A stretch of 64,000 nt of DNA. It comes from Eubacteriales bacterium (GTDB lineage: Bacteria > Bacillota > Clostridia > Oscillospirales > CAG-272). The translations under genes were made by a program, and so were the position numbers. Numbering within the stretch: position 1 is the stretch's first letter; every line of letters begins with the position of its first letter. Of this stretch, positions 4,746 through 40,288 are shown one piece after another. The DNA lies in assembly GCA_045122255.1 (NCBI GenBank), contig JBGVHJ010000063.1:25610-89609 (forward strand). The letters are read 5' to 3'. A model generated the notes under the pieces. That model saw nothing but the letters and a program-made list of their open reading frames with translations, was not told the origin of the DNA and made no database searches.

Positions 4746-7091
4746 ATGACAGAGGCAGACAGAATATTTGAACGCTTTCCCGATTATATTCGAGAGTACA
4801 TCTATTCTCACTCATGGGAATCTCTGCGCGCCGTTCAAGTAGCGGCGGCAAAAACGATATTTGACACCGAAAACAATCTGCTACTCACCTCCTCCACAGC
4901 AAGCGGAAAGACCGAGGCGGCATTTTTCCCCATTCTTTCACTTCTTAACGAAGATCCGCCCGCCAGCGTTGGAGTGCTTTACATCGCCCCCTTGAAGAGC
5001 CTTATAAACGATCAGTTTGAGCGACTTGAAGAGGTTCTTGATATGACGGGAGTCAAGGTGACTCACTGGCACGGCGACGTTGCGGCATCTCACAAAAGGC
5101 GGCTTCTGGAAAAGCCAGAGGGAATATTGCAGATCACTCCCGAATCTCTCGAGGCTATGCTTATCAACCGTTCCAACGATATTCCGCGTCTTTTCGGAGA
5201 CCTCCGTTTCGTTGTAATTGACGAGATACACACACTGACAGGCACCGACCGAGGCAATCAGATAATCTGCCTGCTCTCGAGAATTGCCCATCTTATTGGA
5301 TATCATCCGCGCCGCATTGCCCTCTCCGCTACTATAGGAGACCCTACTCTCGCTGCCGAATGGCTGAATGCTGATACCGGAAGAGATATAGACGTGCCCG
5401 AATTGGCTCAGGAGAAGATTCGCTGGAGGCTGGGGCTTGAGCACTTCTATATCCAAAATCCCGAGGTTGAGGCATATAAGGAGCAGCAAAAAAAGGCTCA
5501 GATTACCGAGTCAAAGCCTGATAATGATGTGATTTTCGTTGAAAAGACCGCTGACGCTCCCGACAGTCAAAATTACACCGAAAATAGCGAGGCATATGAA
5601 AAGGTTGGCGGAAGCAAGCCTTATTACATCGATCCCGGCTACGAATACGCTTACGATTGTGTAAAAGATAAAAAATCCTTGGTCTTCTCCAATTCGCGAG
5701 AGGAGACAGAATACGTCTGCGCCACGCTCCGTCAGATAGCAAGGCTACGCGGTGACGAGGACTCGCACATTCTTATTCATCACGGCAATCTCTCGGCATC
5801 GCTTCGAGAGGAAGCCGAGATGAAAATGCGCGACGATGAGGAATTTGCCGTCACCTGTGCAACGGTCACTATGGAGCTTGGAATTGATATAGGTCAGCTT
5901 GAACGCGTTATGCAGGTCGAAGCTCCCAACAGCGTTTCAAGCTTTTTGCAGAGGCTGGGTCGCTCGGGCAGACGAAGCCAGACTCCCGAAATGATGATGG
6001 TATTCCGCGAGGAGGAGGCTCTCCCCAACACTCCTCTGCCGCAGCTTATTCCATGGGAGCTGCTTCGCGGTATCGCGATCATTCAGCTTTACATTGAGGA
6101 ACGCTTTATCGAGCCTCCCACGCGCAAAAAGATGCCCTTCAGTCTGATTTTCCATCAGACACTTTCAATGTTGGCTTCATCAGGTGAGCTTACTCCCGCG
6201 CGCCTTGCGCAAAGGGTGCTCTCTCTTCCTCCCTTCAGATTTGTAAGCCGCGAAGACTATAAAGCCCTTATAGTTTCGATGCTGAATAACGGCTTTATTG
6301 AGATGACCGAGGAAAAGGGGCTTATAGTCGGTCTTGTTGGCGAAAGACTCTTGAAGAGCTTCAAATTTTACGCGGTATTCAAGGATAGCGAGGATTTCAC
6401 GGTGCGTTGCGGCTCCGACGAGATCGGAACGATAACCACTCCCCCGCCCGTTGGCGACAGATTTGCTTTGGCAGGTCGCGTGTGGGAGGTGGAGGAGCTC
6501 GACATTACAAGAAAGCTGCTTTACGTTAAAAAGGTTGACGGCAAGATGGAGGTCTCGTGGCCCGGCGACTTCGGCGAGATACACACCAAAATTTTGCGCC
6601 GTATGAGGCGGATACTTGAGGAGGACACAGTTTATCCCTATCTCAAGGAAAACGCCTTAAAACGCTTAAATCAGGCTCGTGCGACCGCTCGAAACACCGG
6701 AATGCTTGAGCACTCTCTCGTTCATCTTGGCGGCTACTCCTGGTGTCTCTTCCCTTGGCTTGGAACACGCTCCTTCCGCACTCTGCGCAAGTACATAAAG
6801 AAAAATGCCGCGGCAAATAACCTGAGCGGCATAGAGTTTGAGGGCTGCTATTATATCACCTTCAAGATGGAAAAGGTATCGGATATACAGTTCATTTCCC
6901 GTCTGCTTGACGGAGTTGAGCGCGAGGGCATCGTGTGCGAGCACCTCGTCGAGAATAGCGAGATACCCGTGTTCGAAAAATATGATAACTATATTCCCCA
7001 CGACCTTCTTCGCAAGGCTTATGCCGCAGATAAGTTGCGAGCAGATGAAGCAGAAGCTCAGATACGAGCGATATTCGAAGAATTTGAATAA
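4746..7091 (+). CDS. Lhr-like SF2 DEXH-box helicase (SngC-like / BrxHI-like)
   Basis: 781 aa. Motif I is STASGKTEAA, II is VVIDEIH, III is SAT and VI is QRLGRSGRR. The long C-terminal region resembles the Lhr DEAD/H-associated region. SD is AAAGGAGG. Confidence 0.85.
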   Translation: MTEADRIFERFPDYIREYIYSHSWESLRAVQVAAAKTIFDTENNLLLTSSTASGKTEAAFFPILSLLNEDPPASVGVLYIAPLKSLINDQFERLEEVLDMTGVKVTHWHGDVAASHKRRLLEKPEGILQITPESLEAMLINRSNDIPRLFGDLRFVVIDEIHTLTGTDRGNQIICLLSRIAHLIGYHPRRIALSATIGDPTLAAEWLNADTGRDIDVPELAQEKIRWRLGLEHFYIQNPEVEAYKEQQKKAQITESKPDNDVIFVEKTADAPDSQNYTENSEAYEKVGGSKPYYIDPGYEYAYDCVKDKKSLVFSNSREETEYVCATLRQIARLRGDEDSHILIHHGNLSASLREEAEMKMRDDEEFAVTCATVTMELGIDIGQLERVMQVEAPNSVSSFLQRLGRSGRRSQTPEMMMVFREEEALPNTPLPQLIPWELLRGIAIIQLYIEERFIEPPTRKKMPFSLIFHQTLSMLASSGELTPARLAQRVLSLPPFRFVSREDYKALIVSMLNNGFIEMTEEKGLIVGLVGERLLKSFKFYAVFKDSEDFTVRCGSDEIGTITTPPPVGDRFALAGRVWEVEELDITRKLLYVKKVDGKMEVSWPGDFGEIHTKILRRMRRILEEDTVYPYLKENALKRLNQARATARNTGMLEHSLVHLGGYSWCLFPWLGTRSFRTLRKYIKKNAAANNLSGIEFEGCYYITFKMEKVSDIQFISRLLDGVEREGIVCEHLVENSEIPVFEKYDNYIPHDLLRKAYAADKLRADEAEAQIRAIFEEFE

Positions 7092-8142: not shown

Positions 8143-9732
8143 TTATTTCGCGTAGTCGACTGCGCGGCTCTCGCGAATGAGGTTGATCTTGATCTGTCCG
8201 GGATACTTGACTTCATTCTGGATCTTCTGCGCCATTTCACGGGCGATGACCTTCATGCCTGCGTCGTTGACCTCCTCGGGCTTGACCATAACTCTGATCT
8301 CACGTCCTGCCTGAATTGCGAATGCCTTGTCGATTCCTTCAAAGCTCTTTGCGATCTCTTCAAGCTTTTCAAGACGCTTGATGTAATTTTCCATATCCTC
8401 ACGTCTTGCACCGGGTCTTGCCGCGCTGATAGCGTCAGCAGCCTGAACAAGCACTGCGATAATGGTCTTGGGTTCAACGTCATTGTGGTGCGCCTCGATA
8501 GCGTGGACAACCTCGCGGCTTTCCTTGTACTTCTTAACGGCATTTACACCGATCTCAACGTGGGAGCCCTCAACGTCGTGGGGGAATGCTTTACCGATAT
8601 CGTGGAGCAGACCTGCGCGCTTCGCAAGATTACTGTCTACGCCAAGCTCGTCCGCCATGATACCTGCCAGGAACGCGACCTCAATAGAATGCTTGAGAAC
8701 GTTCTGACCGTAGCTGGTTCTGTACTTAAGTCTACCGAGCAATCTTACAAGCTCGGGGTTGATTCCGTGGATGCCGACCTCAAAGGTTGCTCTCTCTCCT
8801 GCCTGCTTGACAGAAACGTCAACCTCCTTCTGTGCCTTTTCAACCATTTCCTCAATTCTCGCGGGATGGATTCGTCCATCGGAGATAAGTCTCTCGAGAG
8901 CGATTCTCGCTACCTCACGTCTTACGGGATCGAAGCCCGACAGCGTGATGGTTTCGGGGGTATCGTCAATAATAAGCTCAACGCCTGTAAGCGTTTCGAT
9001 CTTCTGGATGTTACGTCCTTCACGTCCGATAATTCTTCCCTTCATTTCCTCGCTGGGCAGAGCCACACTGGAAACGGTAGCCTCGGATACGTGGTCGGAT
9101 GCATATCTCTGAATTGCCAAAGACAGAATGTTCTTTGCCTTTTCGTCTGCTTCTTCCTTGAACTGAGTCTCAAGCTCGTCGAGTCTCTGTGCAAGCTCAT
9201 GCTTTGCTTCGGACTCAACTCTTTCAATAAGCTCTTCCTTAGCTCTTTCGGACGAATAGCCCGAGATCTCCTCAAGCTTCTTGACCTGCTCGCCGATCAT
9301 TTCGTCAGCCTTTTCCTGCAGAAGCTCGTAATCCTTGATCTTCTTGTCAAGAACCTCGTTCTTCTTTTCAAGAGCCTCACTCTTCTTGTCAAGAGTTTCC
9401 TCTTTCTTGGTCAAGCGATTCTCGGTGCGTGTGATCTCGTTTCTTCTTTCCTTGATCTCACGGTCAAGCTCATTTCTCTGAGCCATAATAGTCTCTTTAG
9501 CTTCGATCAAAGACTCCTTCTTTGCAGATTCAGCATTTTTCTTTGCCTCTTCAAGAATCTTAACCGCCTCAGCCTCGGCAGAGCCGATCTTGGACTCGCC
9601 AACCTTTTTTCTGATAAGAATTCCAATCAGAATTCCCAGAGTGCCTGCTACAACAGTACAAATAACACCTACAAGGATCGGTATTCCGATCTGCAATACT
9701 TCATTAGGTATTATACTTAATGCTATTGGCAT
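8143..9732 (-). CDS. rny: Ribonuclease Y
   Basis: N-terminal TM segment plus coiled coil, a KH motif ([15 protein letters not shown]) and an HD domain (HSIEVA...LLHDIGK). Confidence 0.95.
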
Positions 9733-17140: not shown

Positions 17141-19735
17141 TTAGTTCAAGCGTTTTTTGAGGTCGAAAAGGAAGGTCATACACTCATAAGGCGAGAGCGT
17201 ATTGATATCTACCTTTTTCAATTCCTCGATTATCTGATCGTTTATACAATCCTCAAAGGTGATAAGGCTTTCGTCCTTTGCCACCGTCTTTTCTTCTTTG
17301 TCCGTAAGCTTGATGTTCTTCGCGCTCTCCTCAACCGTAGCGAGGATCTCTTTAGCGCGCTTGATGACCTCATTGGGCAATCCCGCAAGCTTGGCAACCT
17401 CGATTCCGTAGCTATCATCGGTAGAGCCGCGAACGATCTTACGGAGGAAGGTAATACTGTCACCGCGCTTCTTTGCGGCGATATTGTAGTTGACGATGCC
17501 GTCAAACTCCTTCTCCATGCTTGTAAGCTCATGGTAGTGTGTCGCAAAGAGAGTCTTTGCACCGATCCGTCTGCCTGCCGTGTATTCAACGATGGCACGG
17601 GCAATGCTCATTCCGTCAAAGGTGGACGTGCCGCGACCGACCTCGTCATATATAATAAGCGAGCGCCTTGTAGCATTCTTCAGTATATATGCCACCTCAT
17701 TCATCTCAAGCATAAAAGTGGACTGACCCGATGCAAGATCATCGGAGGCACCGACTCTTGTGAATATCTTATCCACGATTCCTACGGTAGCCTCTGCCGC
17801 CGGCACGAATGAGCCCATTTGCGCCATAAGCACGATAAGCGCGACCTGTCGCATATAGGTGGATTTACCCGCCATATTGGGACCTGTGATAAGCAGGAGT
17901 CGGTCTGTGGTCATATTGAGCATGGTATCGTTAGGCACGAAATAGGAGTCCTTTACGAACTGCTCGACCACGGGATGTCTTCCGTCTCGCACGTCGATCT
18001 CGTCGTTCGACGTGATCTCGGGGCGGACGTATCTGTTTTTAGCCGCAACGGTTGCCAAGCTGTAGTAAACGTCGGTCTCGGCAAGCAGCGCCGCGGTCTT
18101 CTGAATTCTCGTACTGTTATCGGCAACGGTTGCTCTTATATCGCAGAAAAGCTCGTATTCAAGCGAGCAGAGCTTATCGGAGGCTCCAAGCACCTTGGCT
18201 TCCATTTCCTTGAGCTCCTCGGTTATGTATCTCTCGCAATTTGCGAGAGTCTGCTTTCTGATATATCTGTCGGGAACCAGCTCATATTGGCTTCTCGTGA
18301 CCTCTATATAGAATCCGAAGACCTTATTATATCCCACCTTCAGATTCTTGATTCCCGTATCCTCGCGCTCTCTTTCGGCGATCTGCTCGCGCCATTCGTC
18401 GCCGTGCTCTACTATTGAGCGGAACTCGTCTACGCGCGCATCAAATCCGTCCTTTATCATTCCGCCCTCGCGGACAGAGAACGGCGGCTCTTCCTTGATG
18501 GATCTGGAGATCAGATCGCAGATATCCTCAAGGGTATCAAGCTCGCGGTATATTCTCTGCATCTCATCACTTGTGCAACCCGAAAGCAGAGTCTTCAGCT
18601 CGGGCAATATGGCTACGGTGCTTGCAACCGCGCGAAGATCCTTCGCGTTTGCGCTTCCGTAAACTATCTTGGTTATAAGTCTTTCAAGGTCGAGAACATT
18701 GTCAAGAAGCTCGCTTATCTGCTCGCGGAGCATAAAGTTATTATAAAGCTCCTCAACGGCATTCTGTCTTTTAACGATCGCAGAAGGTGTGATCAAGGGA
18801 TGCTCGACCCATTTGCGCAAAAGTCTTGCGCCAAGAGACGAGCGGGTCTTGTCAAGAACCCAGAGAAGAGTTCCCTTCTTTTCCTTCGATCTCATAGACT
18901 CGGTAAGCTCAAGGTTTCGTCTTGTATTAACGTCCATTTCAAGGTATTGACCGTCAGAATAGACGTTGAGCTTATTGATATATCCTATATCCTTCTTCTG
19001 GGTGTCGCGGATATAGTCGAGCATAGCACCAACGGCGCAGACCATCGCCCTGTCGCTCATATCGTCCTCGCGCAGAGTCGCATCAAACTGAGCCTTTACT
19101 CTTTCCGCGCAAGGGTCAAGCTCGAAGCGGAAGGGCTGATTATCGTTGAGCATAGCGCCAAGTCTTGACTTGATAAATTCGGCGATATCCTTGAACTTGG
19201 ATGCACCGAGATTGGAAATTACCTCAGCGGGCGAATACGTGCCCAGCTCGTTGAGAAGTCTCGCATCCATATTCGTGCCCGAGAAGCTGGTAGCGTATAT
19301 TTCTGCGGTTGAAACGTCGCAGAAGCAAACGCCGTATTCAAATTCGCCGAGATAAAGGGCGCAGAGGTAATTATTCTTCTTGTCGGACAGGAGACTCGAC
19401 TCAATGACCGTACCGGGAGTAATAACTCTTATAACGTCTCTCTTGACTATTCCCTTCGCCTGAGAAGGGTCCTCCATCTGCTCGCAGATGGCGATCTTAA
19501 ATCCCTGCTCGATAAGGCGACCTATATAGGTGTCCACCGCGTGGAAGGGCACGCCGCACATCGGCGCTCTCTCGGCTTCTCCGCAATCTCTTCCCGTCAA
19601 AGTCAGCTCAAGTGCTCTTGACGCGACTATTGCATCGTCAAAAAACATCTCGTAAAAGTCACCGAGACGGTAGAAAAGCAGATAATCCTTGTATTTCTCT
19701 TTTATCTCAAAATATTGCTCCATCATTGGAGTCAT
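17141..19735 (-). CDS. mutS: DNA mismatch repair protein MutS
   Basis: TPMMEQYFEIKEKYKDYLLFYRLGDFYEMFFDDA, and Walker A GPNMAGKST. Confidence 0.95.
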   Translation of the reverse strand: MTPMMEQYFEIKEKYKDYLLFYRLGDFYEMFFDDAIVASRALELTLTGRDCGEAERAPMCGVPFHAVDTYIGRLIEQGFKIAICEQMEDPSQAKGIVKRDVIRVITPGTVIESSLLSDKKNNYLCALYLGEFEYGVCFCDVSTAEIYATSFSGTNMDARLLNELGTYSPAEVISNLGASKFKDIAEFIKSRLGAMLNDNQPFRFELDPCAERVKAQFDATLREDDMSDRAMVCAVGAMLDYIRDTQKKDIGYINKLNVYSDGQYLEMDVNTRRNLELTESMRSKEKKGTLLWVLDKTRSSLGARLLRKWVEHPLITPSAIVKRQNAVEELYNNFMLREQISELLDNVLDLERLITKIVYGSANAKDLRAVASTVAILPELKTLLSGCTSDEMQRIYRELDTLEDICDLISRSIKEEPPFSVREGGMIKDGFDARVDEFRSIVEHGDEWREQIAEREREDTGIKNLKVGYNKVFGFYIEVTRSQYELVPDRYIRKQTLANCERYITEELKEMEAKVLGASDKLCSLEYELFCDIRATVADNSTRIQKTAALLAETDVYYSLATVAAKNRYVRPEITSNDEIDVRDGRHPVVEQFVKDSYFVPNDTMLNMTTDRLLLITGPNMAGKSTYMRQVALIVLMAQMGSFVPAAEATVGIVDKIFTRVGASDDLASGQSTFMLEMNEVAYILKNATRRSLIIYDEVGRGTSTFDGMSIARAIVEYTAGRRIGAKTLFATHYHELTSMEKEFDGIVNYNIAAKKRGDSITFLRKIVRGSTDDSYGIEVAKLAGLPNEVIKRAKEILATVEESAKNIKLTDKEEKTVAKDESLITFEDCINDQIIEELKKVDINTLSPYECMTFLFDLKKRLN

Positions 19736-19768
19736 AGCGGTTTCCTCGCTTTTTTATTTTTTAATAAC

Positions 19769-19880
19769 CTACGGCTTTGCCGTAGATTTCACGCTCTCTT
19801 AGAGAGCATTTCACGTTGCAAAGCAACATTTCACATTTTGCGAAGCAAAATATTTCACCGCAAAAGCCACGGGCTTTTGC
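19769..19880 (-). repeat. Array of 5 perfect hairpins separated by 4 copies of GTGAAAT (minus-strand reading) between ricA and mutS
   Basis: Plus strand: ctacggc-ttt-gccgtag ATTTCAC gctctc-tta-gagagc ATTTCAC gttgc-aaa-gcaac ATTTCAC attttgc-gaa-gcaaaat ATTTCAC (c)gcaaaagcc-acg-ggcttttgc. Confidence 0.9.
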
Positions 19881-20261
19881 TTAGTGGCAGCCGCCGCAGG
19901 TGGAGCAATCGTGCGTGCAAGGCGTCTTACCCGTTGCATTGAACATAATGGTATTGTTCACGGTCTCCATAAGCTCGTTTACCGCGGTCTGCGCTTCTTC
20001 AAGCTCCATAAAAATGGGATCAGTGGTGATCTCGGCATAGATCTCATCGATCCTGTCCTGAATTCTGGTCAGCGCATCGGTATCGATGTCCGCGCTGTCG
20101 CCCATAGCGGTAAGCGCCTGCTGCTGAATGCCGTATTCCATCATAAGGTTATTTATCTTTTCGCTCTTTTCGTAGGCTTCCTTTGCCGCCTCCATGCGGA
20201 TCATTCTTTCGTCGGCCTTGATCGCCTTTCCAAGCTCTGCTGCAAGTGAATAAATGCTCAT
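19881..20261 (-). CDS. ricA: YlbF/YmcA-family protein (RicA-like) with a C-terminal 4-Cys tail
   Basis: 126 aa and helical. Its position between miaB (ymcB) and mutS matches B. subtilis ymcB-ymcA synteny. It ends in PCTHDCSTCGGCH. Confidence 0.7.
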   Translation of the reverse strand: MSIYSLAAELGKAIKADERMIRMEAAKEAYEKSEKINNLMMEYGIQQQALTAMGDSADIDTDALTRIQDRIDEIYAEITTDPIFMELEEAQTAVNELMETVNNTIMFNATGKTPCTHDCSTCGGCH

Positions 20262-30033: not shown

Positions 30034-30221
30034 AGTGATATTGTTGCTTCGCAACAGTGGTATTTCCCTTGCGGGAAGTGATATTGTTCAGCTTTGCTGA
30101 ACAGTGATATTCTATTCGCCACTTTAACTTGCGTAGCAAATACCACTCGGTGTAAGCCGAATATCACTGCGAAGCAATACCACTCGCCGCAGGCGAATAG
30201 AACTGCGCACCTTCGGTGCGC
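30034..30221. repeat. Composite motif-hairpin element, copy 1: 4 x AGTGRTATT (forward), then 5 x AATAYCACT-like (reverse), each separated by a perfect mini-hairpin
   Basis: Read directly from the sequence. The unit list is in the findings. Confidence 0.9.
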
Positions 30222-30237: not shown

Positions 30238-31446
30238 ATGAAAACCGTTGGCATCGTATGCGAATACAACCCTTTTCACACGGGGCATGCGCGGCAGATA
30301 GATATTCTGCGCAAGAGTGGCGCCGAGGTGATAATATGCGCTATGAGCGGCAATTTTTCAGAGCGCGGAGAGCTTACAGTTGCAGACAAATACACTCGCG
30401 CAGAGGCGGCTGTAAGATGCGGCGCGGATATAGTAGTTGAGCTTCCCTTTCCCTATTCTTCGCTTTCGGCAGAAGGATTCTGCTCTGCGGGCGTCCACAT
30501 TCTCTCGTCTCTTGGTTGCGATACTCTTTCATTTGGAAGCGAGAGCGCAGACGTGGCGCTTCTTCGTCGCGCGGCTGATATAGCTTCCTCTCCCGAATTC
30601 GTCTCGGATTATGCCGAGATCTGCAAAAATCAAGGCTCGGCAAGGGCTTATTTCGACCTGCTTTCCGAAAAGCTTGGCGAGGATGCAAGGCTTCTTTCAA
30701 ACGATATTTTGGGCATATCCTACGTTGCCGCCATCAAGCATCAAGGCTCCGTGATGGAGATATTCCCCATAAGTCGCGAGGGAGCGGCTTATAAGGAAAC
30801 CGAGCTCGGCGGCCCTTATCCCAGCGCGACCGCCATCAGAAAGGCGACCAATGAATCGCAGAAGGGCTTTTTCGCTATCAGCTGTGACAATATCCCCACC
30901 CCTGCCCTCGAAGCCTTGAAAAGGGCTCAAAATGACGGTCTCGCGCCGGTATTTACCGACAGTATCGGATCGGATATCCTCAGCTTTTTCAAGCTTATGT
31001 CACCCGACGAGATAATTTCTCGCGCTACTAAAAGATCGGGCGGCGGAGATTCGGTCTGCTGCGACGGATGCGGTATTGTAGAAAGAATATGCAACAGTGC
31101 AAAAGCATCAAAAGATCTCGGCGAAATGCTGAAGGCATCATACAATTCAAGATATCCCGATGCAAGGATCAACCGCGTAATTCTCTTCTCCATGCTTGGC
31201 GTATCGGATGCTTTTGAAAAATCGCTACCCGAATACACCCAGCTTTTAGGAGCAAGCGACGCGGGACGAAAATACCTCTCGAATATCCGCAAGTCTTCCG
31301 CTTTCCCCATAGTCACAAAGCCTGCCGACGCTCCCGAAGCAACGGCAACGGGTATCCTCCATCTTTCCGACTCACTTTACGCATCCGCTATGCCAAAGGA
31401 CGTAAATTTCGATTATTTTCTCAAAAAACACCCATATATGGGCTGA
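30238..31446 (+). CDS. tmcAL: tRNA(Met) cytidine acetate ligase (YlbM/TmcAL family nucleotidyltransferase)
   Basis: MKTVGIVCEYNPFHTGHARQI matches the YlbM N-terminus, and SD AAAGGAGAG lies at 30225-30233. The 48 codons upstream in the track ORF merely translate the repeat array. Confidence 0.85.
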   Translation: MKTVGIVCEYNPFHTGHARQIDILRKSGAEVIICAMSGNFSERGELTVADKYTRAEAAVRCGADIVVELPFPYSSLSAEGFCSAGVHILSSLGCDTLSFGSESADVALLRRAADIASSPEFVSDYAEICKNQGSARAYFDLLSEKLGEDARLLSNDILGISYVAAIKHQGSVMEIFPISREGAAYKETELGGPYPSATAIRKATNESQKGFFAISCDNIPTPALEALKRAQNDGLAPVFTDSIGSDILSFFKLMSPDEIISRATKRSGGGDSVCCDGCGIVERICNSAKASKDLGEMLKASYNSRYPDARINRVILFSMLGVSDAFEKSLPEYTQLLGASDAGRKYLSNIRKSSAFPIVTKPADAPEATATGILHLSDSLYASAMPKDVNFDYFLKKHPYMG

Positions 31447-38977: not shown

Positions 38978-39028
38978 AAAAAATCGGCTGCCGATGCCCA
39001 ACTTCTCATAAGGAAGTTGGGCAGTTTT
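38978..39028. terminator. rhaA terminator region (two adjacent hairpins, usable from either strand)
   Basis: ATCGG-CTG-CCGAT (38983-38995) is preceded by A6. GCCCAACTTC-TCATAAG-GAAGTTGGGC (38996-39022) is followed by AGTTTTA. Confidence 0.7.
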
Positions 39029-39193
39029 ATTCGCCTGCGGCGAGTTCTATTGCTTCGCAGTGATATTCGTCTTGCGACGAGTGGTATTCGCTACGCGAGT
39101 TTAGGAGGCGAATAAAATATCACTAAAGCCGTAGGCTTTAATATCACTGTTGCGTAAGCGGCAATATCACTCCGACGAAGTCGGAATATAACT
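39027..39193. repeat. Composite motif-hairpin element, copy 2 (opposite orientation to copy 1)
   Basis: cgcc-tgc-ggcg AGTTCTATT gc-ttc-gc AGTGATATT cgtc-ttgc-gacg AGTGGTATT cgc-tac-gcg AGTTTAGGA GGCGAATAA AATATCACT aaagcc-gta-ggcttt AATATCACT gttgcgtaagcggc(aa) (AA)TATCACT ccgac-gaa-gtcgg AATATAACT. Confidence 0.9.
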
Positions 39194-39221
39194 TGACTAA
39201 TTGTCGATTTTGATGTATAAT
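39193..39221 (+). promoter_or_regulatory. Promoter of the four-helix-bundle gene; the -35 abuts the last repeat unit
   Basis: TTGACT (39193-39198), 17 nt, TATAAT (39216-39221). Confidence 0.55.
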
Positions 39222-39239
39222 ATTTGCAGAGGTGATGTT

Positions 39240-39596
39240 ATGTCAAACAGCGTTATGAGAGATAAAGCAAAGGATTTTGCAAAGAATATTGTCTTCCTCT
39301 GCCGTAATATGAAGGCAGAGCATAAAGAAACGGTGCTTATAAATCAACTGCTGCGTTCAGGCACTTCCATTGGTGCGAACATTCACGAAGCACAATATGC
39401 ACAAGGTACAAAAGACTTTATATCTAAACTTGAAATTGCTCAGAAGGAATGCTATGAAACAGAATATTGGCTTGAGCTTTTATTTGAAACCGGTTGTATT
39501 GAAGAATGTATTTACAAGTCTATTCAGAACGATTGCGGAGCAATTCGCAGAATGTTGATTGCTTCCTTGAACACAATTAAATCAAAACAAGAATAG
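39240..39596 (+). CDS. Four-helix-bundle protein (23S rRNA intervening-sequence protein / Avd-like family)
   Basis: MSNSVMRDKAKDFAKNIVFLCRNM...LLRSGTSIGANIHEAQ...YWLELL is the family signature as I recall it. ATG 39240 follows AGAGGTGAT. Confidence 0.75.
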   Translation: MSNSVMRDKAKDFAKNIVFLCRNMKAEHKETVLINQLLRSGTSIGANIHEAQYAQGTKDFISKLEIAQKECYETEYWLELLFETGCIEECIYKSIQNDCGAIRRMLIASLNTIKSKQE

Positions 39597-39683
39597 GGGT
39601 ATGGGCTCTGCCCGAACCTTTGTAATACAAAGGCGAAACTGGCGATAAATATGAAATACTACGAATTGGCGGGATAGTTATTT

Positions 39684-40142
39684 ATGTGTATGATTTGTGA
39701 TAGAATCAAAATGATCAAGCAAGGGACGAACCCTTGGTTTGTCAAGGAATTAGAAACCGGATACGTTGTCATTGGAGATAATCAACATTTTAATGGCTAT
39801 ACATTATTCCTTTGCAAAGAACACAAGACAGAACTCTTTCAATTAGACTATTCTTCAAAAATGAAATTTCTGGAAGAAATGTCCGTTGTTGCCGAAGCCG
39901 TAGCAAAAGCGTTCAACGCTGAGAAAATGAACTATGAGTTATTAGGTAATGGCGATACCCATCTGCATTGGCATTTGTTTCCCAGAGTAAGCGGAGATTT
40001 AGAAGGCTACGGAAACAACGGGAAGGGACCTGTGTGGTGGTATCCAATGGAAAAAATGTACAGTTCGGAGAATCGTCCTGATAAAGAAAGGTTGAATGCC
40101 TTGAAGAGAAATTTGGCAGAAGAATTGGAAAAACTTTTATGA
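39684..40142 (+). CDS. HIT-family (histidine triad) protein
   Basis: The histidine triad is GDTHLHWHLFPR. Confidence 0.8.
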   Translation: MCMICDRIKMIKQGTNPWFVKELETGYVVIGDNQHFNGYTLFLCKEHKTELFQLDYSSKMKFLEEMSVVAEAVAKAFNAEKMNYELLGNGDTHLHWHLFPRVSGDLEGYGNNGKGPVWWYPMEKMYSSENRPDKERLNALKRNLAEELEKLL

Positions 40143-40155
40143 TTATAAATAAACG

Positions 40156-40185
40156 CCCCGACAGATCTTTTGAAATCTGTCGGGG
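40156..40185. terminator. Terminator between the convergent HIT gene and membrane-protein gene
   Basis: CCCCGACAGAT-CTTTTGAA-ATCTGTCGGGG, an 11-bp stem. Confidence 0.7.
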
Positions 40186-40288
40186 TTATCTATTTGTTTC
40201 TGCAGATCAAATTTAAGTCTTATGAGCAAACTTCCTTATGAGAACCAGCATATGACGCCGATTTTTTATATTATAAGGTAGCTTTCGG

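Follow-up and report, generated by a model that had tools for sequence, protein, structure and literature searches.

What is an array of five perfect hairpins, separated by four exact copies of the heptamer GTGAAAT, doing in the spacer between a RicA-like gene and the mismatch repair gene mutS? The question is raised by a 64,000-nt stretch of the Eubacteriales bacterium contig JBGVHJ010000063.1 (the whole stretch is called the window here, and all coordinates are positions within it), where the array occupies 19769-19880 and is read on the minus strand from the ricA stop codon TAA (19883-19881). A first-pass annotation, made from the letters alone, had proposed a processing or stability element, or a partial terminator, that sets apart the expression of ricA and mutSL. 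In this article, I will argue for a different answer, one that I consider rather probable though far from settled: the array is a strain-specific solo arm of the dispersed hairpin-array repeat that Rfam lists as Gut-1, it is passively co-transcribed with ricA and mutS, and whatever it does to the mRNA is incidental, as with the repetitive extragenic palindromic (REP) sequences of other bacteria.

Identity and strain distribution of the ricA-mutS array

The array and the leader that follows it are laid out as listed here, in the order of transcription and with the basis of each assignment in brackets.

19860-19880, minus strand: hairpin H1, gcaaaagcc-cgt-ggcttttgc, 9 bp and perfect, abutting the stop codon (sequence, folding)
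19852-19858, minus strand: linker 1, GTGAAAT (motif count)
19835-19851, minus strand: hairpin H2, attttgc-ttc-gcaaaat, 7 bp, containing GCTTCGC, which is GCGAAGC on the plus strand (sequence, folding)
19828-19834, minus strand: linker 2, GTGAAAT (motif count)
19815-19827, minus strand: hairpin H3, gttgc-ttt-gcaac, 5 bp (sequence, folding)
19808-19814, minus strand: linker 3, GTGAAAT (motif count)
19793-19807, minus strand: hairpin H4, gctctc-taa-gagagc, 6 bp (sequence, folding)
19786-19792, minus strand: linker 4, GTGAAAT (motif count)
19769-19785, minus strand: hairpin H5, ctacggc-aaa-gccgtag, 7 bp (sequence, folding)
19736-19768, minus strand: degenerate last linker GTTATTA, an A-rich tract and the mutS Shine-Dalgarno (SD) sequence GAGGAAA (sequence, comparison with relatives)

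On re-reading, the description given by the first-pass annotation was exact in every particular, namely five hairpins with stems of 5-9 bp and loops of 3 nt, four GTGAAAT linkers with periods of 24, 20 and 22 nt, the GCTTCGC within H2, and 33 nt from the array end to the mutS ATG at 19735 (gttattaaaaaataaaaaagcGAGGAAAccgct, which includes GAGGAAA); in addition, a single g lies between H1 and linker 1. Counted on both strands of the whole window, GTGAAAT occurs 12 times against 10.5 expected by chance, and four of the 12 copies are those of the array, packed in 73 nt on one strand. Folding of the minus strand as RNA recovers all five hairpins (-54.6 kcal/mol, z = -6.5, with 0 of 200 shuffles equal), and folding of the plus strand as DNA gives z = -8.1, again equalled by 0 of 200 shuffles.

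An Rfam scan of the window at the gathering threshold returned one match only, and it falls within the array:

19781-19860, minus strand: RF01706, Gut-1 RNA, model positions 1-77 of 77, 63.8 bits, E = 2e-10 for the whole window (gathering threshold 50 bits)

The Gut-1 consensus, UGAAAU-hairpin-GUGAAAU-hairpin-GUGAAAU-hairpin-GUGAAAU, is the architecture of the array, with H2-H4 fitting the model and H1 and H5 being extra. At a permissive threshold all five arms of this type in the window, which belong to three loci, match the model, the ricA-mutS copy at 63.8 bits and the others at 45.4, 44.8, 44.1 and 36.5 bits; the two loci with AGTGATATT linkers (30034-30221 and 38994-40249) therefore lie below the 50-bit Gut-1 threshold. 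Since all of them match the same Rfam model and have a common architecture, the kinship of the array with these two loci, which the first-pass annotation had claimed, is supported, and its observation that GTGAAAT is one base off the GTGATAT core of the 9-mer at 30035-30167 and 39060-39170 is correct. The novelty that it implied does not survive, since the motif was already in the catalogue. Gut-1 was first described from 43 human-gut metagenome sequences, none of them in sequenced organisms, and was scored RNA = Y and cis-regulatory = n, that is, as a probable stand-alone noncoding RNA (ncRNA) to which no function was assigned (Weinberg et al., 2010, Genome Biol 11:R31), while the Rfam type of RF01706 is 'Gene; sRNA'. 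A literature search found no later work on Gut-1 after 2010, and nothing relevant on GUGAAAU or GTGAAAT together with a hairpin or repeat. Judged by its sequence, the array is a new member of this known family, whose function is unexplained. Both the published motif and the array have three successive hairpins flanked and separated by (G)UGAAAU in gut-associated, Clostridia-like sequences; unlike published Gut-1, the copy studied here has five hairpins, lies within an operon and is strain-specific.

The strain specificity is evident from the orthologous spacers. Seven metagenomic ricA orthologues (71-92% amino acid identity) were recovered, one of which (L122; such numbers designate the loci compared) ends before the spacer, and the array is absent in six of the six whose spacer can be read (L121, L123-L127). 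Three of these six spacers measure 43-48 nt; the rest is unrelated sequence, but the SD-proximal ...aaaagcgaggaaaccgctATG is held in common. An exact-protein look-up of RicA gave two contigs with the identical protein. The first, L128, is 100% identical to the window, carries the array and is the sole array-bearing relative found; the second, L129, is without the array, its nucleotide identity being 95.0% in miaB-ricA and 91.4% at the 5' end of mutS. Homology between L129 and the window is lost at 19875 and regained at 19767, the two edges of the array, and in place of the array L129 has at 1118-1287 (orthologous to window 19736-19880) a 170-nt imperfect inverted repeat resembling a miniature inverted-repeat transposable element (MITE). 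Since a different inverted-repeat insert sits at the same place, the spacer appears to be an insertion hot spot, and the ancestral spacer was probably about 45 nt long; the sequence at 19736-19768 lies outside the insert, because it is also present in relatives that have no array. MITE-like spacer inserts of about 170-190 nt, likewise imperfect inverted repeats and with cagaac...gttctg ends, are also found in L123 and L125. The first-pass annotation had named the comparison of these spacers as a check on its proposal, and the outcome, an array missing from the near-identical L129 and from six other relatives, goes against it and against a dedicated processing, stability or attenuation role for ricA and mutSL.

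Near-exclusive Watson-Crick stems across the wider family

The ricA-mutS copy belongs to a much larger set. A pattern scan that took one genome per species found at least 120 loci, and at least 87 array occurrences pass the hairpin filter, nearly all from metagenome-assembled genomes (MAGs) of gut and rumen Clostridia (Acutalibacteraceae, Oscillospiraceae and Ruminococcaceae), with a few from Akkermansia and one from Bacteroidaceae. A phage origin was considered and rejected, as only 10 of the 120 listed pattern matches in viral contigs are real hairpin arrays. The neighbours of the arrays are unrelated housekeeping genes, the only recurrent specific neighbour being a gene for a four-helix-bundle protein (PF05635), and all-against-all clustering of 739 open reading frames (ORFs) within 2.5 kb found no transposase, integrase or cas gene near them.

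The stems, counted in 84 non-redundant related arrays, consist of 1253 Watson-Crick pairs, one G·T, seven A·C or C·A and two other mismatches; 208 of 218 hairpins are perfect, and 170 of 194 hairpin sequences are distinct. Because the stems are near-perfect and yet their sequences are mostly distinct, pairing must have been kept via many compensatory changes, with hardly any wobble on either strand. Terminator-like hairpins in the same loci, taken under a comparable one-mismatch rule and serving as an imperfect control, have 6.2% non-Watson-Crick positions, with 38 G·T and 39 A·C; as these two are equal in number, the control does not calibrate strandedness and speaks only to the unusual perfection of the array stems.

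The loops are biased as well. The closing pair is nearly always 5'-C...G-3', and the triloops on the GTGAAAT strand are TNC in 71 of 108 cases versus GNA in 4, or else there are TNNC tetraloops, which on the ATTTCAC strand read C(GNA)G and C(GNNA)G; GNRA makes up only half of the tetraloops. This bias tracks the orientation of the linker in both arms, and two-armed elements are therefore mirror-symmetric. C(GNA)G and C(GNNA)G are the classic loops of hyperstable DNA mini-hairpins such as d(GCGAAGC), and the likeness is close, in that the ATTTCAC-strand loops are mostly GAA, GCA or GTA closed by C-G (the same 71 of 108 triloops) or GNNA, although the mini-hairpin is a thermodynamic motif and not a genetic system. 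Within the ricA-mutS array only H2, which is GCGAAGC on the plus strand, has a loop of the favoured type; the remaining four, read on the same strand, are acg, aaa, tta and ttt. A constraint on both DNA strands, acting on cruciforms or single-stranded hairpins, would fit these stems and loops better than a fold selected in one RNA strand. There is no helical phasing, since the linker spacing is broad (18-29 nt) and fixed by stem length.

Two layouts occur. One-armed arrays, to which the ricA-mutS copy belongs, often open with a terminator-like hairpin, within about 35 nt of the upstream stop codon, and often close with GTKRRGG, a further hairpin and an A/U-rich tract. H1, with its A- and T-runs, is like the terminator-like end hairpins that precede many related arrays (L080, L100, L019, L058 and L016), and a hairpin identical to H2 is found in the arrays of L005 and L083. 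The 3' module is conserved in eleven of the loci (L005, L006, L014, L034, L048, L072, L076, L087, L096, L105 and L111), where the last linker is SD-like (GTTAAGG, GTTGAGG or GTGAAGG) and is followed by a hairpin and then a AAAUUUAA-rich tract; in L034, GTTGAGG has a downstream counterpart, CCTCAAC, after which come four TATTCAC heptads in a row. In the two-armed layout, a GTGAAAT arm comes first and an inverted ATTTCAC arm after it, and a covarying helix of 10-12 bp (GAAATAAATCC...GGATTTATTTC and variants) encloses one arm; these copies start right after the T-run of a terminator and reach as far as the -35 box of the promoter that follows. The highest Rfam Gut-1 scores (75-88 bits) come from arms of two-armed elements by tRNA genes and terminators: in L007, L016, L030, L055, L062 and L098, two-armed GTGAAAT elements lie 30-40 nt past tRNA genes, after a bidirectional terminator-like hairpin. 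Furthermore, near-identical arrays stand at contig ends in L063, L066, L067 and L078 (all from one MAG, JAZTZP01) as well as in L105 and L110, each preceded by a palindromic operator-like sequence that overlaps the TATAAT box (tagtttatc-tgc-gataaactataat), which suggests multi-copy promoter-leader units that break assemblies.

Two-armed relatives and a mobile element with a PF05635 gene

Both of the other loci in the window are two-armed.

30034-30221, plus strand: two-armed array with AGTGRTATT linkers in the left arm and AATAYCACT linkers in the right arm (Gut-1, 45.4 and 44.1 bits)
38994-40249, plus strand: mobile element with a two-armed AGTGATATT/AATATCACT array (alignment of copies, Pfam), made up, in order, of an end hairpin with T-run; the two-armed array at 39022-39194; a promoter with its -35 box directly against the last linker; the PF05635 four-helix-bundle gene at 39240-39596 (118 aa); a HIT-domain gene at 39684-40142; a terminator; and the right end

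The second of these elements is mobile. At least 78 contigs encode a 100% identical copy of its 118-aa PF05635 protein, in differing gene surroundings, and a module of about 0.66-1.26 kb, 94-98% identical, is present in at least five different gene contexts, with a sharp start at window 38994 and an end at about 40249 in the form with the HIT-domain gene, another form diverging past 39649 and having a different cargo gene. A 16-nt terminal inverted repeat, TTCTCATAAGGAAGTT, is found at 39003 and 40229, and the whole is flanked by the halves of a split host terminator, aaaaaatcggc...gccgatttttt. Split-terminator flanks of this kind (A-run and stem on one side, stem and T-run on the other) are seen in the window and in L131, L132, L133 and L138, and L270, a 90%-identical variant that is fixed in another species, has the same arrangement. 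Because the flanks are two complementary terminator halves, the element sits in the loop of a host terminator hairpin. Copies differ chiefly by whole linker-hairpin units gained or lost. A long rod formed by pairing of the two arms was discarded as a model, since the variant linkers AGTGGTATT, AATACCACT and AATAGAACT do not stand at complementary positions (locus 2, locus 3 and L270). Empty sites were sought by exact-protein look-ups of RhaA, the YceD-like protein and the HIGH_NTase1 protein, none of which yielded one, and the look-up of a 210-aa neighbour gave only the same allele.

No PF05635 gene accompanies the array at 30034-30221, which has a promoter-like TTGACA...TATACT on one side and, on the other, a HIGH_NTase1 (PF05636) gene that starts at 30238; its closing helix is CTATTCGCC...GGCGAATAG and its end hairpin gcgcacc-ttc-ggtgcgc. 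It is paralogous to 39022-39194; the closing helix YTATTCGCC/GGCGAATAR and two hairpins, gcgaagc and cgcc-gca-ggcg, are found in both. The 118-aa protein has more than 8000 matches among database proteins, and the best 120 are all at least 89% identical to it and mostly on contigs shorter than 2 kb, which is the pattern that would be expected of a repeated element that fragments assemblies. In two further copies (L134 2253-2726 and L139), the place of the right end is taken by sequence with gcccctataaggggc-type hairpins together with a Y1_Tnp (IS200/IS605-like) gene, probably a secondary insertion-sequence event. In an Akkermansia MAG (L004, about 5830-6160), a PF05635 gene is preceded by a two-armed array with the linkers GTTATATC and GATATAAC, and the architecture is therefore kept across phyla while the linker changes.

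The recurrence of the PF05635 gene invites comparison with the classical intervening sequences (IVSs) of 23S rRNA, which are selfish elements in the loops of rRNA helices, some of them encoding this protein family; a member from X. campestris is a homopentameric toroid, and the Coxiella IVS has heptamer repeats (GACAGAT, in variable number) upstream of its ORF (PMC4990558). The closest solved structure to the window protein, 2RLD, has five chains. The two-armed relatives resemble these IVSs in their adjoining PF05635 gene, their insertion in the apical loop of a hairpin and their heptamer repeats upstream of the ORF, whereas the classical IVSs of Leptospira and Coxiella are located in rRNA helices 25 and 45, from which RNase III cuts them out, and the element described here targets intrinsic terminators. 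The ricA-mutS array itself is unlike them, having neither a PF05635 gene nor split-hairpin flanks; the stop codon of ricA borders it on one side and the A-rich leader of mutS on the other, and the two are not complementary to each other. A literature search found no work that links PF05635 to hairpin arrays or that describes the element at 38994-40249.

The array in a probable ricA-mutS transcript

The genes that bear on any role in expression are the following.

19881-20261, minus strand: ricA, a YlbF/YmcA-family, RicA-like gene upstream of the array (Pfam Com_YlbF, E=1e-16)
17141-19735, minus strand: mutS, an 864-aa ORF (Pfam MutS domains I-V)
8143-9732, minus strand: RNase Y

By Pfam, the order is MiaB-like, Com_YlbF (the RicA/RicF family), array, MutS and MutL, which agrees with the miaB-ymcA...mutS-mutL order of B. 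subtilis. A simple scan found no promoter-like or terminator-like site on the minus strand within 19736-19883, and on the mRNA strand no hairpin of the array is followed by a U-tract, GUGAAAU being what follows (the degenerate GTTATTA after H5). The array is probably inside a ricA-mutS co-transcript, and because the mRNA strand has neither a promoter-like nor a terminator-like site, mutS and mutL are most likely expressed by read-through from ricA, which agrees with relatives having a spacer of only about 45 nt. The co-transcript that the first-pass annotation had considered probable is supported by the same observations, and RNase Y and a RicA-like gene are both encoded in the window, as it had stated; its partial terminator finds neither a U-tract nor a terminator-like site on the minus strand. 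The plus-strand GC skew is negative across the window, 1-64000 (-0.01 to -0.08), and the minus strand is therefore the leading strand, from which it follows that the GTGAAAT strand of the array is also the lagging-strand template and that replication-linked and transcription-linked orientation are confounded. The genes miaB-ricA-mutS-mutL are co-oriented with replication, and the genes of the PF05635 element are head-on.

Four other accounts have to be weighed against a passenger repeat. A dedicated cis RNA element, in which GUGAAAU would be an entry site for RNase Y and its Y-complex, the hairpins would protect the ends and RicA would be uncoupled from MutS and MutL, has the following in its favour: the array is in a probable co-transcript and folds very stably, one-armed copies are biased towards the sense strand, many arrays begin no more than 35 nt past the stop codon of an upstream gene, RNase Y is encoded in the window, as is a RicA-like protein, and RNase Y prefers G/AU-rich single strands beside structure. 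I nevertheless regard it as unlikely, given that neither the closest relative, whose RicA is identical, nor six others have the array in this spacer, that arrays of the same type are also found beside unrelated genes, downstream of tRNA genes and their terminators, and within a mobile element, and that the stems have almost no G·U pairs and the UNC triloops of this strand are not typical of stable RNA hairpins. An attenuator acting as a partial intrinsic terminator could appeal to five G+C-containing hairpins in the spacer and to the short A- and T-runs of H1, but with GUGAAAU rather than a U-tract after the hairpins on the mRNA strand, with no terminator-like site on the minus strand of the array, and with the more terminator-like opposite orientation (hairpin, then AUUUCAC) being the rarer one inside transcription units, it is the least credible of the four.

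A stand-alone structured ncRNA, as in the Rfam and Weinberg classification, might for example be a sponge that offers its four or five GUGAAAU sites to an oligomeric RNA-binding protein. The 'Gene; sRNA' type, the RNA = Y and cis-regulatory = n scores of Weinberg et al. (2010), the strong covariation of the stems and copies that do lie between a promoter-like sequence and a terminator (such as two tandem copies in L006) all speak for it; however, ricA is not followed by a promoter, nor is mutS preceded by a terminator, two-armed copies run from T-run to -35 box with no room for a promoter of their own, and mirror-symmetric arms with Watson-Crick-only stems are unexpected of an RNA made from one strand, which leaves it quite improbable here. 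A shade less probable still is an array bound as duplex DNA, of the iteron, operator or centromere type, with a protein cooperatively occupying GTGAAAT and controlling, for example, a mutS promoter. The direct and inverted heptamers of two-armed copies do abut the -35 box of the four-helix-bundle gene promoter, contiguous TATTCAC heptads adjoin the array in L034, and the ATCAC core is similar to the heptads that the pSM19035 omega repressor binds; yet the linkers are spaced by stem length (18-29 bp) with no helical phasing, perfect palindromic spacers with biased loops are left unexplained, and no promoter-like site adjoins the ricA-mutS copy. A number of further ideas, namely start/stop (GUGA) coupling by the heptamer, mimicry of an anticodon loop, attC core sites, type III antitoxin repeats and helical phasing, were dropped because the periods of 22, 20 and 24 are out of frame, the range is 18-29 and the other defining features are absent. 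A CRISPR array was rejected too, the constant unit being only 7 nt, the variable units being perfect palindromes of 13-21 nt and the flanks being miaB, ricA, mutS and mutL.

The passively carried Gut-1 solo arm is thus the account towards which I lean, and it would work as follows. Complete two-armed forms would be part of small mobile elements that enter the loops of intrinsic-terminator hairpins, and in the lineage of the window an array would have taken over the ricA-mutS spacer. As the mRNA reads hairpin-GUGAAAU with no U-tract, transcription would not terminate and the array would be carried passively in the ricA-mutS-mutL transcript. The structure of the family may be selected at the DNA level, where both strands can pair as cruciforms or single-stranded hairpins, and the conserved linkers may be recognition sites for a multimeric protein, the pentameric four-helix-bundle protein being a candidate. 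By analogy with REPs, the five stable hairpins would stop 3'-to-5' exonucleases and could mark ricA/mutS processing boundaries, and H1 at the stop codon could slow termination of RicA translation; since no such possible effect on the mRNA is conserved, the array is not a designed regulator of mismatch repair.

The comparison with REPs and bacterial interspersed mosaic elements (BIMEs) of Enterobacteria and Pseudomonas is instructive on both sides. These are clustered short extragenic palindromes, direct or inverted, scattered among housekeeping genes, often just past stop codons or within operons and variable between strains, and they block 3' exonucleases and affect the expression of upstream genes. 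Here, the three loci and five arms in 64 kb are a REP-like copy number, with the ricA-mutS array absent in L129 and six relatives. In a REP, one palindrome sequence is constant and the linkers vary, whereas here a linker of 7-9 nt is constant and the palindromes differ; and REPs have a cognate REP-associated tyrosine transposase (RAYT), a Y1 (HUH) enzyme, no homologue of which was found in the window by tblastn with a Y1_Tnp protein as the query.

Several points weigh against a passenger repeat. The comparison of presence and absence draws on a single near-conspecific contig and on six others that are more distant. Neither a transposase nor any other mobility enzyme is linked to the one-armed array, which is not flanked by the halves of a split hairpin, and the exact array was not found a second time in another context. 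Its spread was not by recent copy-and-paste, since the hairpins differ between copies, and the long-term keeping of perfect stems and of the same 7-mer across phyla implies selection for some function. In addition, on the GUGAAAU strand a conserved A-U and a U·G pair can lengthen each stem, and one-armed copies show a moderate orientation bias, 20 having their upstream gene on the GTGAAAT strand and 7 having it on the other, which also fits a role at the RNA level, although the bias could come from counter-selection, because the opposite orientation puts AUUU after each hairpin.

A bolder proposal, which I offer tentatively and judge to be possible rather than likely, is that Gut-1-type arrays are the cis module of undescribed small mobile elements that encode a pentameric four-helix-bundle protein (S23p, 23S-IVS or Avd-like) and enter the apical loops of hairpins, that the arrays fold as DNA and thereby gather four or five heptamer linkers for the pentamer, and that one of these elements has left the ricA-mutS array as its solo-arm footprint.

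For this locus, the passenger reading means that mutS and mutL expression would read through a passenger repeat, and that the annotation should be "Gut-1 repeat" and not "regulatory element". As for the family, Gut-1, which since 2010 has been without function or host, is now placed in genomes of cultivable-type Clostridia, where it is polymorphic between strains, and its stems appear to behave as DNA palindromes rather than RNA helices. The more interesting result lies beside the locus, namely that two-armed Gut-1-type arrays are tied to a mobile unit that targets terminator loops and carries a gene for a 23S-IVS-type protein. If true, the mobile-element reading would give one common explanation for a 16-year-old orphan Rfam motif and a decades-old IVS puzzle.

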